Part shown: piece after piece, positions 4,391 to 8,679 of the stretch | Numbering within the stretch: position 1 is the first letter of the stretch | Layout of the letters: each line of letters starts with the position of its first letter | Origin: an uncultured Actinomycetes bacterium | GTDB lineage: Bacteria > Actinomycetota > Thermoleophilia > Gaiellales > JAICJC01 | DNA: 64,000 bases | NCBI GenBank assembly: GCA_963825325.1 | Contig: CAWGSU010000006.1 | Coordinates: 231,978 to 295,977, forward strand | Direction of reading: 5' to 3' | Made by a program: the position numbers and the translations under genes | Notes under the pieces: generated by a model | Databases searched by the model: none | What the model saw: the letters and a program-made list of their open reading frames with translations, nothing else | What the model was told of the DNA's origin: nothing

Positions 4391-5278
4391 CTACCGGCCG
4401 AACTCGCCGCCCGAGGCGATCTCGAGCAGGCGGTCGGCGGGCATGCCGTCCAGGAGCAGCGCGCGCCCGGCGGCGGCCGCGGCGGTTGCCGCCGGCATCA
4501 GGCCGACGAGCTCGCCCCGCTCCACCTCGACGCCGTGTACCGCCGCGAGCCGCCCCACCTCGGCGACGACCTCGTGCAGCGGGGCGCCCGCCGGGTCGAT
4601 CAGGTTCATCGACACCTGCGCGCGGCCGGTGCGCGGGATCAGGAGGCCGAGCGCCTGGACGCCGCGCAGGCCGCCGTCGCGCTCGCGCACCGCAGCGGCG
4701 ACGGTGCGGGCCACGCCGACGTCGCCCGTGCGCAGGTCGACGTTGAACGCAACCAGCGGTGCCCGCACGCCCAGGAGCACCGCGCCGGCGGTCGGATGCA
4801 GGGTCGCCGGCCCGTACAGCGGCACGACGTCGCCCGCGTCGATCAGCGCCTGCAGGCCCGCCGGCCCCGCCGCGCGGAAGAAGGCCGGACGGCGGCCGGC
4901 GCCGAGCTCGCCGTAGCCGACCACCGGCACGCCGAGGCGGCCGATCCGCTCGCCCAGGGCGCGCGCCGCGTGCTCGGGCCGCGGATCGCCCGGACGGAAG
5001 CGCACGAGCGGCACGACGTCGGCGGCGCCGACACGCGGATGCACGCCCTCGTGGCCGGTCAGGTCGATCCGCTCGATCGCGGCCGCGATGCCGGCGGCGA
5101 GGCCGGCGACGAGCGCGTCGGGCTCGCCGACGCAGGTGAGCACCGAGCGGTTGTGGTCGGGGTCGGAGTGCACGTCGAGCACCGCCGCATGCGCCGCCAC
5201 CGCCGACCGGATCGCGGCCACCGCGTCGCGATCGCGCCCCGTCGAGAAGTTCGGCACCGATTCCAGGAGGCCGCGCAT
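4391..5278 (-). CDS. ftcD: glutamate formimidoyltransferase
   Basis: MRGLLESVPNFSTGRD, DPDHNRSV, HEGVHPRVGAADVVP, AQVSMNL; start trimmed to ATG 5278 (GATAAT -10 just upstream, probably leaderless). Confidence 0.92.
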   Translation of the reverse strand: MRGLLESVPNFSTGRDRDAVAAIRSAVAAHAAVLDVHSDPDHNRSVLTCVGEPDALVAGLAAGIAAAIERIDLTGHEGVHPRVGAADVVPLVRFRPGDPRPEHAARALGERIGRLGVPVVGYGELGAGRRPAFFRAAGPAGLQALIDAGDVVPLYGPATLHPTAGAVLLGVRAPLVAFNVDLRTGDVGVARTVAAAVRERDGGLRGVQALGLLIPRTGRAQVSMNLIDPAGAPLHEVVAEVGRLAAVHGVEVERGELVGLMPAATAAAAAGRALLLDGMPADRLLEIASGGEFGR

Positions 5279-5291
5279 CGGCGCATTATCC

Positions 5292-5330
5292 CGTCCCAAT
5301 TGGCATCCACGGCGGATGTCAATTGGGGCG
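5292..5330. repeat. REP-like palindrome (CCCAATTG core), copy 1
   Basis: 17-bp stem with two G-U pairs, CGTCCCAATTGGCATCC/GGATGTCAATTGGGGCG; related copy at 48008-48040. Confidence 0.7.
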
Positions 5331-5658
5331 CCACGCCAATCGAAAGCACGTCCGCGCCGGCGGGCCTCTGTGAGGCCCGCCCGCGGGACCCGAGGTGGCC
5401 GTTCTTGGGGGGGTGAACGGGCCGACCGCGGCCTGGCTCGCGCTCGAACGTGCCCAGTAAGGACGGGTGCCAGGCCCGGGCAGTTTCCTCCAGGATGGCG
5501 AGGGCTGCCTCCCCTTTTCGGGGGATTCACAGACAGGTCAGAACGCCCATCGAAAGTGGAAATGCGTTCCAGCGCCGAGCGGCTACCCCAAACAGGTGAG
5601 ACAAGTCGCCCCGTACGAGCGACGACGCCGGCCGCGGGGGCGCCGATCATATGGTCAA

Positions 5659-5739
5659 CGGATCGATAAAGGCAAACTCACCGCGAGGTGAGCACGCAAA
5701 GCCAGAGGTCTCTTAGAGACGGCTCGGCTGCCGAAACCG
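5659..5739 (+). promoter_or_regulatory. cyclic di-GMP-I (GEMM) riboswitch aptamer
   Basis: AAAGGCAAAC, P2 CTCACC-GCGA-GGTGAG with GNRA loop, ACGCAAAGCC junction, P3 GTCTC-TTA-GAGAC, CTGCCGAA; P1 CGG.TCG/CGA..CCG. The G at the G20-equivalent position (5671) favours c-di-GMP over cGAMP. Confidence 0.9.
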
Positions 5740-5744
5740 GGAAC

Positions 5745-5950
5745 CGCTCAACATGCGGCGTCCTCACAGGGGCAATAGCCCCGAGTGTGGATCCTGCGAG
5801 TGGGACCCCCAGCAATGGACACCATTGCGACCGCGCCTCCAAGGGTAGGCACCAAGGACGCGCAACCCTCGATCCGAATCGACACGGGATGCGGACGGTG
5901 GACGCTGCGGGGGGCAGTGCCACACAGATGGCAGTGAGGTCTGCCGTCCG
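5745..5950 (+). ncRNA. putative structured RNA (or leader of a <=40-aa peptide) downstream of the riboswitch
   Basis: Long-range helix 5755-5763/5900-5908, inner helix 5791-5796/5885-5890, hairpins 5769-5782, 5812-5828, 5869-5882, 5927-5948; no convincing long ORF. Confidence 0.4.
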
Positions 5951-5956
5951 CGCCCG

Positions 5957-6703
5957 TCACTCTCGCCCACGCGCCATCGCCTCGAACTCCGTCGTCGCCT
6001 CCTCCGCCGAGGCCGGCCGCAGGAGATCCGCCGCGAACCCGTCCGCATCGGGCAGCCCGGTCGCGCGGATCCGCGCCGCCGCCGACTCGAGGTCGTAGTC
6101 CGTGCGCCGCAGCTCGACGTCAGGACCGAGCAGGCACCAGTAGGCGGCGGCAGCGCCCTGGTACGGCATGCCGACGCTGCCCGCGTTCACGGCCCGCTTC
6201 GCGCCGATCGCGCGGTCGAACTGGACGTGGGTGTGCCCGCAGACGACGGTGCCCTCCGCCGCCGCGGCCAGCATCGGGGCGACGCGCTCCGGCGGAGAGA
6301 TCGCCGTGAAGATCTCGGAGTCGCTGCGCGGGGTGGCGTGGCAGAAGCACACCGCACCCAGGCCGTCGATCGCGAGGCTGGCCGTGAGCGGCCACGATCC
6401 GAGATCGGCCAGGTCCGCCGCCGTGAGCCGTCCGGCGGCCCACGTGGCGCGCCGGTCCCACAGCTCGCCCTCGTCCGGGTCGGCGCCGCGGCGCTCGATC
6501 AGCTCCCGCTCGGTGTTGCCGCGCACCCATGCGACACGGTCGCCGAGGGCGACGAGCAGCGCGAGCGTCTCGGCCGGCATCGGCCCCTCGAGCGCGTCGC
6601 CACCGACGACCACGCGGTCTGCCCCGGCGACGTCGGGCTCGGCCAGGACGGCCTCGAGCGCCGGCAGGTTGCCGTGGATGTCGTACAGCGCCGCGACCCG
6701 CAT
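5957..6703 (-). CDS. calcineurin-like metallophosphoesterase
   Basis: YDIHGN, GGD, RGN, CHAT and GHTH motifs; start trimmed to MRVAALYD. Confidence 0.9.
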   Translation of the reverse strand: MRVAALYDIHGNLPALEAVLAEPDVAGADRVVVGGDALEGPMPAETLALLVALGDRVAWVRGNTERELIERRGADPDEGELWDRRATWAAGRLTAADLADLGSWPLTASLAIDGLGAVCFCHATPRSDSEIFTAISPPERVAPMLAAAAEGTVVCGHTHVQFDRAIGAKRAVNAGSVGMPYQGAAAAYWCLLGPDVELRRTDYDLESAAARIRATGLPDADGFAADLLRPASAEEATTEFEAMARGRE

Positions 6704-6726
6704 CGCCGGCACGATATCTTGGCGCC

Positions 6727-8679
6727 GTGCTCGATCGCCTGTTCTCGCCCCTCGCGCTCGGCCCGGTGACGATCGCAAACCGGATCGTGTCGACATCGCA
6801 CCAGACGACGCTCGTGCACGACCATCTGCCGACCGACGACCTGATCGCCTACCACCGCGCCCGGGCCGCGGGCGGCGCGGGCCTGATCGTGATCGAGGCC
6901 ACCGCCGTCCACTCCACCGGCCTGCTCACCGCCCACACGCTCGGCGGCTACCTGCCGCAGATCGTCCCGGTCTACCGGCGGCTCGCAGACGCCGTCCACG
7001 AGCACGGCACGCGGCTCATGTGCCAGCTCTTCCACGGCGGCCGCGAGATGATCACGTCCGGGCCGCGGGCGCCGGCGGTGGCGGCCTCGTCGATCCCGTC
7101 CGCCCGGTTCCTGGTCGAGCCGCGCGAGCTCTCGGCCGCCGAGATTCGCGAGATGGTGGCCGGATACCGCCAGGCCGCGGTGTACGCCCGCGAGGGCGGC
7201 CTCGACGGCGTCGAGGTGTGCGCCGGATTCGGCTACCTGCCAACCCAGTTCCTCTCGGCGCACGCAAACGCGCGCACCGACGCCTACGGCGGCTCGTTCA
7301 CGAACCGGCTGCGGTTCCTGCGTGAGGTGCTTGAGGCGATGCGCGAGGGGATCGGTGCCGACGGTGCGGTCGGCTGCCGCCTGACCGACGAGAGCGGCTC
7401 CTACGACGGCACCGACACGGAGGACGTGGTCGAGGCGGCGGGCGTGCTGGCCGACGACGGCCTGGCGGACTACATCTCGGTCGCGCTCGGCGGCTCCTCC
7501 ACCTACCGCGGCTCGACCTGGATCGTGCCGCCGCCGCCCGCGCGCCGAAACGCTGTCGCCGACTTCGCGCGACTGTTCAAACCCCGTGTGGCGGTGCCCG
7601 TGATCGCCACCGGCCGGATCCTCGATCCCGCCGACGCCGACCGCCTGATCGGCGAGGGCGTCTGTGACGCGGTCGGCATGACGCGGGCGATGATCGCCGA
7701 GCCGGGCCTGGCCAAGAAGACGCGCGCCGGCGAGCCGGTCACCGTCTGCATCGGCTGCAACCAGGGCTGCATCGGCCACTACCACGCCGGTGTGCCGATC
7801 GCGTGCACGGTCAACCCGTGGACCGGCTACGAGGCGACGCTGCCGCGTCCGCGGCGGGCTGGGGCGGCGCAGCGGGTGGTCGTGATCGGCGCCGGGCCGG
7901 CCGGCTGCGCGGCGGCCGCCGCCGCGGCGGCGAGCGGCCACGAGGTGACCGTGCTCGAGCGCGGCGCTGCGCACGGCGGGCAGATGCGGTTCGCGCTCGG
8001 CGCGCCCGGCCACGCCGAGATCGCCGCCGGCCTGATCGACGTGCTCGGGACATGGCTCGCCGCGGCCGACGTCCGCTACGGGGTGAACGCCGGGGTCGCC
8101 GACGTGCGCACGCTCGCGCCCGACCGGGTCGTGCTGGCGTCGGGCGCCGATCCGTATCTCCCCGCGCTCGCCGGCGACGGGGTCGCGATCGTCCACGCCT
8201 GGGATGTGCTCGCAGGCGCCGACGCGGGCGGGAGCGTGCTCGTGAGCGACTGGGGCGGCGACTGGACCGGCTTCGACGTCGCCGAGGCGCTTGCGGCTCG
8301 CGGCGGCCGCGTGCGCCTGATGACGTCGGCGGTCGCCTTCGGCCAGGGCGTGCACCAGTACCAGCGCAACCTCTACCTGGCCCGGCTCGACGAGGCCGGC
8401 GTCGAGCTCCTGCACCATCTGCGGCCCGTCGGCGTGCGCCCGGGCGCGGTCGAGTGCGTGAACGTCTTCTCCCACCGGCCCATGCTGATCGACGGCGTCG
8501 ACACGCTCGTGGTGAGCGCCGGGCGCACGGCCCGCAACCACCTGCACGACGAGCTGCTCGCGGCCGGGGTCTCCGTCGAGCGCGCGGGCGATGTCCAGAG
8601 TCCGCGGTCGTTCGAGGAGGCGATCCGCGAGGGCACGCTGGCCGGGATGGGCATCGCCGAGCCCGCCACCACGCACTGA
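6727..8679 (+). CDS. NADH:flavin oxidoreductase (OYE barrel + 4Fe-4S + FAD/NAD domain; DCR/TMADH-like)
   Basis: LFSPLALGPVTIANRIV, NARTDAYGGS, CIGCNQGC...C, GAGPAG. Confidence 0.9.
   Translation: MLDRLFSPLALGPVTIANRIVSTSHQTTLVHDHLPTDDLIAYHRARAAGGAGLIVIEATAVHSTGLLTAHTLGGYLPQIVPVYRRLADAVHEHGTRLMCQLFHGGREMITSGPRAPAVAASSIPSARFLVEPRELSAAEIREMVAGYRQAAVYAREGGLDGVEVCAGFGYLPTQFLSAHANARTDAYGGSFTNRLRFLREVLEAMREGIGADGAVGCRLTDESGSYDGTDTEDVVEAAGVLADDGLADYISVALGGSSTYRGSTWIVPPPPARRNAVADFARLFKPRVAVPVIATGRILDPADADRLIGEGVCDAVGMTRAMIAEPGLAKKTRAGEPVTVCIGCNQGCIGHYHAGVPIACTVNPWTGYEATLPRPRRAGAAQRVVVIGAGPAGCAAAAAAAASGHEVTVLERGAAHGGQMRFALGAPGHAEIAAGLIDVLGTWLAAADVRYGVNAGVADVRTLAPDRVVLASGADPYLPALAGDGVAIVHAWDVLAGADAGGSVLVSDWGGDWTGFDVAEALAARGGRVRLMTSAVAFGQGVHQYQRNLYLARLDEAGVELLHHLRPVGVRPGAVECVNVFSHRPMLIDGVDTLVVSAGRTARNHLHDELLAAGVSVERAGDVQSPRSFEEAIREGTLAGMGIAEPATTH

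Follow-up and report, generated by a model that had tools for sequence, protein, structure and literature searches.

A c-di-GMP riboswitch joined to a conserved folded tail in uncultured Gaiellales: a probable stand-alone RNA descended from a secreted-protein gene

Riboswitches are nearly always read as gene switches, and RNAs that are headed by a riboswitch and lead into no gene amount to a handful of cases of debated function. Dual-function small RNAs such as SgrS/SgrT and RNAIII/hld are both messenger RNA (mRNA) and functional RNA, and in this type of molecule the coding part can vanish while the RNA role stays. Here, we analyse a locus in a 64,000-nucleotide (nt) stretch of DNA (the window) from an uncultured Actinomycetes bacterium of the order Gaiellales (GenBank assembly GCA_963825325.1, contig CAWGSU010000006.1, positions 231,978 to 295,977), in which a cyclic di-GMP (c-di-GMP) class I riboswitch on the plus strand is followed by a conserved, folded tail instead of a gene. 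The function of SgrS/SgrT and RNAIII/hld as RNA is a known base pairing, whereas the RNA considered here is riboswitch-headed. A literature search found no paper on c-di-GMP riboswitches in Thermoleophilia and none on riboswitches in Gaiellales.

The closest functional analogue appears to be the merRNA of Bdellovibrio bacteriovorus, which has been proposed to soak up c-di-GMP (PMC3627812). merRNA is several hundred nt long, begins with a c-di-GMP riboswitch, has no conserved open reading frame (ORF) behind it and occurs in one lineage, as does the element described here. The two differ in that merRNA belongs to another phylum and the present element has a traceable coding origin and a covarying multi-helix fold. 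In design, the nearest system seems to be the c-di-GMP-II riboswitch and group I ribozyme pair of Clostridioides difficile. In that system (PMC9481103), an aptamer is likewise joined to a large structured RNA, with a proposed alternative long-range pairing of the P1 strand; that system differs in its class II aptamer, its recognised ribozyme and the gene behind it, whereas no ribozyme family matches here. A third comparison is offered by antisense-acting riboswitches, which, according to a survey, are most enriched in the c-di-GMP class (152 antisense vs. 2,554 sense arrangements; PMC9943018). The locus resembles them in having a convergent gene within 500 nt, but in many orthologous loci that keep the element this gene is missing.

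We propose that positions 5657-5959 of the plus strand form a stand-alone, c-di-GMP-sensing non-coding RNA of about 300 nt, derived from an mRNA and carrying a five-helix tail. We regard this reading as probable; its anatomy and origin are well supported, its function inferred. The RNA has stayed almost unchanged though the gene was lost and the frame decayed, and therefore it would now work as RNA. An earlier, sequence-only reading of the locus had also arrived at a c-di-GMP-gated structured non-coding RNA as the output of the riboswitch, and this remains the best explanation. Of its more specific proposals for that output, a CsrA-type sponge and a micropeptide are not supported, and antisense action on the neighbouring metallophosphoesterase is excluded as a general role.

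The aptamer, on the plus strand at 5659-5739, is of the c-di-GMP-I (GEMM-I) type, as had been predicted, and consists of two hairpins with a GNRA loop (GCGA). The Rfam match covers 5662-5736, and the predicted span is this match together with a 3-base-pair (bp) extension of P1. The best model of the clan is RF03167 (c-di-GMP-I-GGC) with 68.4 bits and E 4.6e-14, only 3.8 bits above RF01051 (c-di-GMP-I), which matches at the same place end to end (model positions 1-87) with 64.6 bits against a gathering score of 35. The GGC variant was nevertheless rejected. The window aptamer reads ACGCAAAGC where the GGC model has ACGCGAAGC, and the variant column holds A (ACGCA) both here and in all 30 aptamers compared, but G (ACGCG) in the model. 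We take this column to be the variant-defining position, A47 of the Vibrio aptamer, with which the window sequence is consistent on the numbering assumed; G20, A47 and C92 are presumably the canonical ligand-contacting nucleotides of that aptamer, and the mapping of G20 and C92 to the window is likewise our assumption. All 20 further orthologous loci carry the aptamer above threshold, the best model being RF03167 in 15 and RF01051 in 5. Because of the A at the middle variant position and because orthologues flip between the two models, we read the aptamer as an ordinary c-di-GMP-I aptamer with c-di-GMP as its predicted ligand. What sets it apart from the riboswitches of RF01051 is its setting: it is not located in the 5′ untranslated region (UTR) of a gene and is joined to a tail that matches no Rfam family.

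In the whole 4.16-Mb assembly there is a single match to RF03167/RF01051, together with 31 matches to the GGDEF domain. Of 30 genomes from the genus, 28 contain an orthologue of the aptamer; for the family, the aptamer is present in 34 of 36, with one copy in most. One genus genome has a second, weaker GEMM-I aptamer (L041, G010:C9:118900-118977; 55.3 bits), which has no tail and is directly followed by an ORF with a hydrophobic, signal-like start. A sister family of the same order has three to six GEMM-I matches per genome, some of them in pairs about 10 nt apart that resemble tandem c-di-GMP-I riboswitches (e.g., G040:C201:4634-4834, G052:C324:2541-2749, G056:C12:16954-17186, G044:C53:15484-15715 and G048:C31:4746-4917); none of these copies has the tail behind it.

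The tail occupies 220 nt at 5737-5959. In an alignment of 25 loci of the genus, conservation extends to about 5959 and then stops abruptly. A covariance model built from the 3′ half of the tail (R1) scores 137.9 bits at this locus. Of 45 sampled family genomes, 43 contain a single copy according to this model, and 105 genomes from the order's four other families contain none. Scanned with a sequence pattern, a set of one genome per GTDB species yielded 52 matches, all in metagenome-assembled genomes titled Gaiellales, Thermoleophilia or uncultured Actinomycetes. A looser pattern, applied to the Joint Genome Institute (JGI) metagenomes, gave 74 contigs, of which R1 confirms 59, the other 15 being chance matches. 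Together with 55 genome loci, this makes about 110 sequences in all; one unpublished genome (G016) is a row in the alignments and counts, and no claim depends on it alone. Aptamer and tail occur together in all 55 genome loci. Similarly, the 5′ strand of the aptamer is present in 51 of 51 metagenome members with at least 250 nt of upstream sequence, the other eight having less than 180 nt. Among the lineages searched, the aptamer-tail element is limited to one family of uncultured Gaiellales, within which the tail is retained across at least five genera. One genome (G025) holds the identical whole locus on two contigs (G025:C10:152282 and G025:C11:9518), probably an assembly duplicate.

The tract behind the aptamer had been described as densely paired, and its predicted fold is indeed far better than expected by chance: -112 kcal/mol with a z score of -4.55, a value that none of 200 shuffles equals. 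The whole RNA has a minimum free energy (MFE) of -150.8 kcal/mol and a z score of -5.81. A search of 5200-6050 against Rfam 15 with permissive filters and E up to 10 revealed no family within 5737-5956, and three other rows at E 4.8-6.6 were dismissed as noise. Five divergent members, folded singly, share a common architecture of P2, P3, P4 with a 7-nt loop, P5 and a three-way junction P6-P8. P2 is a long irregular hairpin at 5739-5808 (5744-5767/5785-5803, with its tip at 5769-5782), closed by GGG 5739-5741 and CCC 5806-5808; it appears in the MFE folds, and compensatory changes distinguish the genus's two clades. In P3 (5812-5828), two pairs are changed on both sides between the clades, from AU to GC and from UA to CG. 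P4 (5833-5863) is recovered in five independent folds and presents a near-invariant 7-nt loop, GTAGGCA, at 5845-5851; the block AGGCACC of this region is invariant in 35 of 35 rows. P5 (5869-5882) has a 5′ half, 5869-5876, that is perfectly complementary to the 5′ strand of the aptamer's P1 (5659-5666). The three-way junction at 5884-5957 comprises an outer P6 (5884-5888/5953-5957), P6 (5891-5903/5939-5951), P7 (5905-5908/5914-5917, loop GGGGG), P8 (5919-5922/5929-5932) and the junction segment AGTGAG (5933-5938).

Comparative evidence for this fold is available at two depths. RNAalifold, run on a MAFFT alignment of 35 tails, predicted the 3′ half only, and the 5′ half was tested within the genus only because MAFFT misaligns it between genera. 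In the 3′ domain, 96.9% of cells are paired over 61 distinct sequences and 13 of 35 pairs are changed on both sides, as counted in an alignment fitted to the model structure; shuffles give 5.8 ± 1.2 double-changed pairs and slid controls 3-5. The MAFFT-based count is nine double-changed pairs vs. 2.8. Within the genus, 94.4% of the cells of the whole tail pair, compared with 29-45% when partners are slid, and nine pairs in P2, P3 and P6 are changed on both sides, most of these changes reflecting a single divergence of the two clades. No variation is seen in P5, P7 or the base of P6, which are therefore neither supported nor contradicted. On this evidence, the tail is both conserved and covarying. 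Of the helices previously drawn here, the hairpins at 5769-5782 (the tip of P2), 5812-5828 (P3) and 5869-5882 (P5) are real and conserved. An enclosing 9-bp helix (5755-5763/5900-5908), an inner helix (5791-5796/5885-5890) and a final hairpin (5927-5948) can be drawn in the window sequence and are lost in the genus's second clade; they are replaced by P2 (5744-5803), P4 and P6-P8, all of which have comparative support.

The origin of the tail can be read from relatives in which it still belongs to a gene. The tail corresponds by homology to the opening ~70 codons of a gene for a small secreted protein. Three genomes (G066, G102 and G166) have an open frame that begins within the P2 helix, on its 3′ strand, crosses the tail and continues for about 70 more codons; in G102, the start codon is GTG, five bases after GGAGGA. 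In these relatives, P3 and P4 encode the signal peptide, the P3 stretch being its hydrophobic core. Small secreted proteins of G126 and G141 can be aligned to two parts of this product, its C-terminal half and the stretch that P6-P8 encode; in both genomes, the gene for the small protein is a separate one that lies about 130 nt beyond a full aptamer and tail. When 65 genomes of the family are searched with a profile of four small proteins, seven yield the full gene and another two a broken version. All others, those of this genus among them, show nothing stronger than weak matches to the tail (E 1e-9 to 1e-4), many of them interrupted by in-frame stops. No Pfam family was found for three versions of the protein, and the best look-alike in the ESM Atlas, at 0.86, has no family, SCPU (0.79) and DUF4402 (0.77) being below the meaningful level. 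We consider it well supported, on these sequence comparisons, that the tail represents a fossil of the gene's start region, signal peptide and mature N-terminus. A paralogue of the small protein in G061 (G061:C12:21570-21914, E 2e-14) lies away from the riboswitch locus, and the protein family is therefore not confined to it. In G102 (L051), an integrase/transposase-like ORF lies at about 1917-2885, directly behind the intact small-protein gene, in the usual place of an oxidoreductase gene.

A crude heuristic, which files G164 as broken although the protein profile finds a full-length copy there, sorts the 55 genome loci into 46 truncated, three fused open, four fused broken or contig-cut and two with a separate gene; the corresponding numbers for the 59 metagenome members are 42, 7, 3 and 7. 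The truncated forms end a few bases after P6, at bases that differ between lineages. The spacer behind the tail of G126 shares with truncated relatives one short word only, which is not robust homology. In a tree of the oxidoreductase, the genomes that still have the gene are all confined to one main clade out of two, where they are interspersed with truncated ones. A normal coding sequence right after the aptamer in relatives, which the sequence-only reading would have taken as a sign of local deletion or misassembly in the window, is thus seen in a minority of family genomes. Neither explanation applies, since the truncated form is the commonest and is under purifying selection.

This selection acts on the nucleotide sequence. 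Tails from the window's clade share 85-96% identity with that of the window, and the adjacent formiminotransferase gene is about 79%, 77% and 58% identical at codon positions 1, 2 and 3; the tail is better conserved than even codon positions 1 and 2. A blastn comparison of the tail with the separate gene copies of G126 and G141 gives no match longer than 26 nt. The same protein segment is encoded there by unrelated DNA, and the nucleotide conservation of the tail is therefore not protein-derived. A codon that specifies Phe in all real proteins reads Ser, Leu, Cys or Pro in truncated tails, with P6 pairing kept. In most truncated loci, stops interrupt the frame of the real protein near the anchor, at 12-54 nt on its upstream side and/or 21-30 nt on its downstream side, and the linker between P4 and P5 varies by 0-4 nt within the genus. 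The frames behind the aptamer are broken and differ between clades, so that no conserved ORF is found there, as expected for a stand-alone, merRNA-like RNA.

Three alternatives deny the tail a folded-RNA role of the proposed kind. That it is a decaying pseudogene fragment without present function, conserved merely by recent common descent, agrees with its homology to an intact gene in relatives and with its disrupted frame, as in a unitary pseudogene. Neutral decay is not what is observed, though: conservation exceeds that of codon positions 1 and 2 next door, pairs are kept through double changes, the tail persists in several genera and the truncations stop only a few bases from where P6 ends, at slightly different points, all of which leaves this explanation with very little probability. 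The idea that the tail encodes a micropeptide, from an ORF at 5753 or 5815 or from a signal-peptide-like remnant, seems equally remote. Both short ORFs exist in the window, and an ATG or GTG stands at the 5753 column in most of 29 genus rows, but neither ORF is conserved across the genus's two clades. The peptides from the 5753 start (31 aa vs. 58 aa) have only their first four residues in common, the 5815 ATG is missing in the second clade and the tail contains indels of 1-4 nt. A 28-codon ORF, consisting of a signal-peptide-like stretch plus five residues and closed by the same TGA, is kept in eight genomes of a subclade of another genus, g5 (L011, L069, L075, L077-L079 and L081), and may mark a micropeptide retained there. 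The least credible of the three is a CsrA-type GGA sponge. The eight GGA triplets counted beforehand are present in the 223 nt, and a CsrA-family ORF is encoded in this genome (G000:C6:889143-889298, 76.6 bits). The triplets are not in excess, as dinucleotide shuffles contain 5.6 ± 1.7 and 138 of 1000 reach eight. Only one of them is well conserved (33 of 35 rows), and its place is within the P6 stem and not in a loop; the other seven occur in 5-21 of 35 rows.

How ligand binding might be passed on to the tail is suggested by the base pairing itself. The ancestral state would have been a riboswitch-controlled gene for the small secreted protein. In the intact genes of relatives, P2 encloses the start codon, and the base of P2 shares bases with the 3′ strand of the extended P1; this arrangement makes it probable that the ancestral device was a translational ON switch upon ligand binding. 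In this genus and most of the family, the rest of the gene would then have been lost and the frame would have decayed, the RNA being kept. For the present RNA, we consider an exchange of the P1 5′ strand the most likely switch. With ligand, this strand would pair inside the aptamer and P5 would form; without ligand, it would pair with 5869-5876, giving a circle-like closed fold in which P5 is dissolved. Such a switch would alter the shape, the stability or the partner access of the invariant P4-P8 domain. The long-range helix 5659-5666/5869-5876 comprises 8 bp and is found in the whole-RNA MFE here and in four other members; complementarity of at least 8 nt occurs in 27 of 2000 shuffles. Its strands are near-invariant, the 5′ strand in 55 of 55 loci and the partner in about 52 of 55. 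The final output may be ligand buffering, a trans target or a protein partner. A bolder version, which we hold to be rather unlikely, is a natural allosteric device in which c-di-GMP toggles a P4-P8 domain with an activity of its own (catalysis or protein/RNA binding), i.e., a trans-acting sensor made from an mRNA coding region.

The element seems to have its own promoter. A -10-like box had been noted just upstream at 5642-5649; the box is present, and its position is better set at the hexamer GATCAT, 5645-5650 on the plus strand, where the pattern NANNNT is conserved across loci: in 52 of 55, it ends 7-11 nt ahead of the C in the P1 strand. A scan for consensus promoters and terminators found no site on the plus strand, and its two minus-strand sites fall within the aptamer hairpin. 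Twenty public runs from 12 studies contain part of this stretch, and 16 of these runs are recorded as RNA. Contigs from four RNA libraries (four studies), aligned to the window, span 5644-5991. X1 contributes a 160-nt contig 100% identical to 5684-5843, X5 contigs at 5658-5821 and 5843-5991, X6 many contigs of close relatives at 5683-5924 and X9 a contig at 5644-5817. The flanks in X6 (5270-5647 and beyond 5972) are without cover, which was not used as evidence. The contig of X5 that starts at 5658, and a contig of X6 with a loose end immediately before 5657 that is presumably adapter sequence, give a weak hint that the RNA's 5′ end on the plus strand lies at 5657-5658, 7 nt behind the hexamer; such contigs cannot prove RNA ends.

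Behind the tail, the next gene is convergent and has its stop at 5957, as previously noted. It encodes a metallophosphoesterase on the minus strand (5957-6703, in an ORF at 5957-6796; Pfam Metallophos_2, E 4e-14), and the final bases of the conserved RNA fall on its stop codon (5957-5959). A gene for an NADH:flavin oxidoreductase/FadH-like protein (Pfam Oxidored_FMN and Pyr_redox_2) follows on the plus strand at 6715-8679, with a GTG start at 6727 and a -10-like TATCTT at 6715-6720, 6 nt before the start codon. The pattern TANNNT is the actinobacterial -10 pattern, and at such spacing it marks a leaderless mRNA with its own promoter. The 55 loci were examined for it, and in all 47 with the oxidoreductase start found, the hexamer ends 5-9 nt before that start. 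There is thus no gene left for the riboswitch to control in cis, the next one being convergent and the oxidoreductase having its own -10 box.

Two further rivals place the function of the element in these neighbours, and we assign both only a small probability. In the first, aptamer and tail would be an unusually long cis leader that governs read-through into the oxidoreductase by termination or Rho, the tail being the expression platform. In 47 of 55 loci, the first gene downstream in the same direction is the oxidoreductase, which in about 20 of these begins 31-73 nt after the tail, and this synteny is kept across genera. Yet a dependent co-directional gene, which defines a classical cis leader, is not what these loci contain: the hexamer in front of the oxidoreductase leaves no room for a Shine-Dalgarno sequence, no U-tract terminator was found behind P6, and the convergent gene of 750 nt intervenes both in the clade of the window and in representatives of two further genera, where the tail is equally conserved. 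According to the other rival, no less improbable, the riboswitch acts in antisense: ligand-controlled transcription from 5657 would overlap or enter the 3′ end of the metallophosphoesterase gene and lower its expression. The overlap of the convergent stop codon with the RNA's last bases, which recurs in G114 of another genus, speaks for it, as do the X5 contig that spans 5843-5991 and the enrichment of the c-di-GMP class among antisense arrangements mentioned above. The metallophosphoesterase is missing from many loci that keep the RNA, and the element is equally conserved without it in the genus's second clade and in other genera; for this reason, antisense action on this gene, as proposed before, cannot be the general function. 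A promoter acting in antisense would not need a conserved, folded tail of 220 nt, and antisense control may at most be an added role in some lineages.

Several points weigh against the stand-alone, c-di-GMP-sensing RNA that we favour. From the RNA-library contigs, neither ends nor strand nor level of the RNA can be read, and DNA carry-over is possible; an end of the RNA near 5960 and its action in trans are predictions. The long-range helix shows no covariation because both of its strands are invariant, also when metagenome sequences are added, where one contig has one uncompensated change; the helix may be a by-product of palindromic ATCGAT repeats. The alignment of the 3′ domain, being fitted to the model structure, favours pairing. 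Because the 28-codon ORF is conserved in the g5 subclade, some members may still make a peptide, and the closeness of the oxidoreductase behind the element in many genomes makes read-through control possible. Furthermore, the single-gene tree resolves poorly how many truncations were independent: it needs three state changes, and its well-supported branches force only one.

The element adds to the few gene-less riboswitch RNAs a family-wide case. Since the same element forms the 5′ part of a working gene in some genomes and is a selected RNA without the gene in others, it offers a rare view of the conversion of coding into non-coding sequence. It also provides a defined 300-nt construct for asking whether c-di-GMP controls an RNA fold rather than a gene. 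In addition, it is the sole c-di-GMP-I riboswitch beside about 30 diguanylate-cyclase-type genes in a widespread uncultured soil lineage.

Two non-coding regions near the element deserve mention. At 6700-6730, the metallophosphoesterase (start about 6703, minus strand) and the oxidoreductase (GTG 6727, plus strand) diverge from a 23-nt spacer, the palindrome GATATC of which supplies a TANNNT hexamer in each direction; both genes look leaderless. On the other side, the genus conserves about 350 nt at 5290-5640, which separate the riboswitch promoter from the start of the formiminotransferase gene (5278, minus strand). This region has no Rfam match, contains hairpins such as 5361-5386 and a CCCC/GGGG hairpin near 5510-5530, and is touched by an RNA-library contig at 5349-5457; it could serve as a 5′ UTR for the divergent hut-type operon or represent another RNA.

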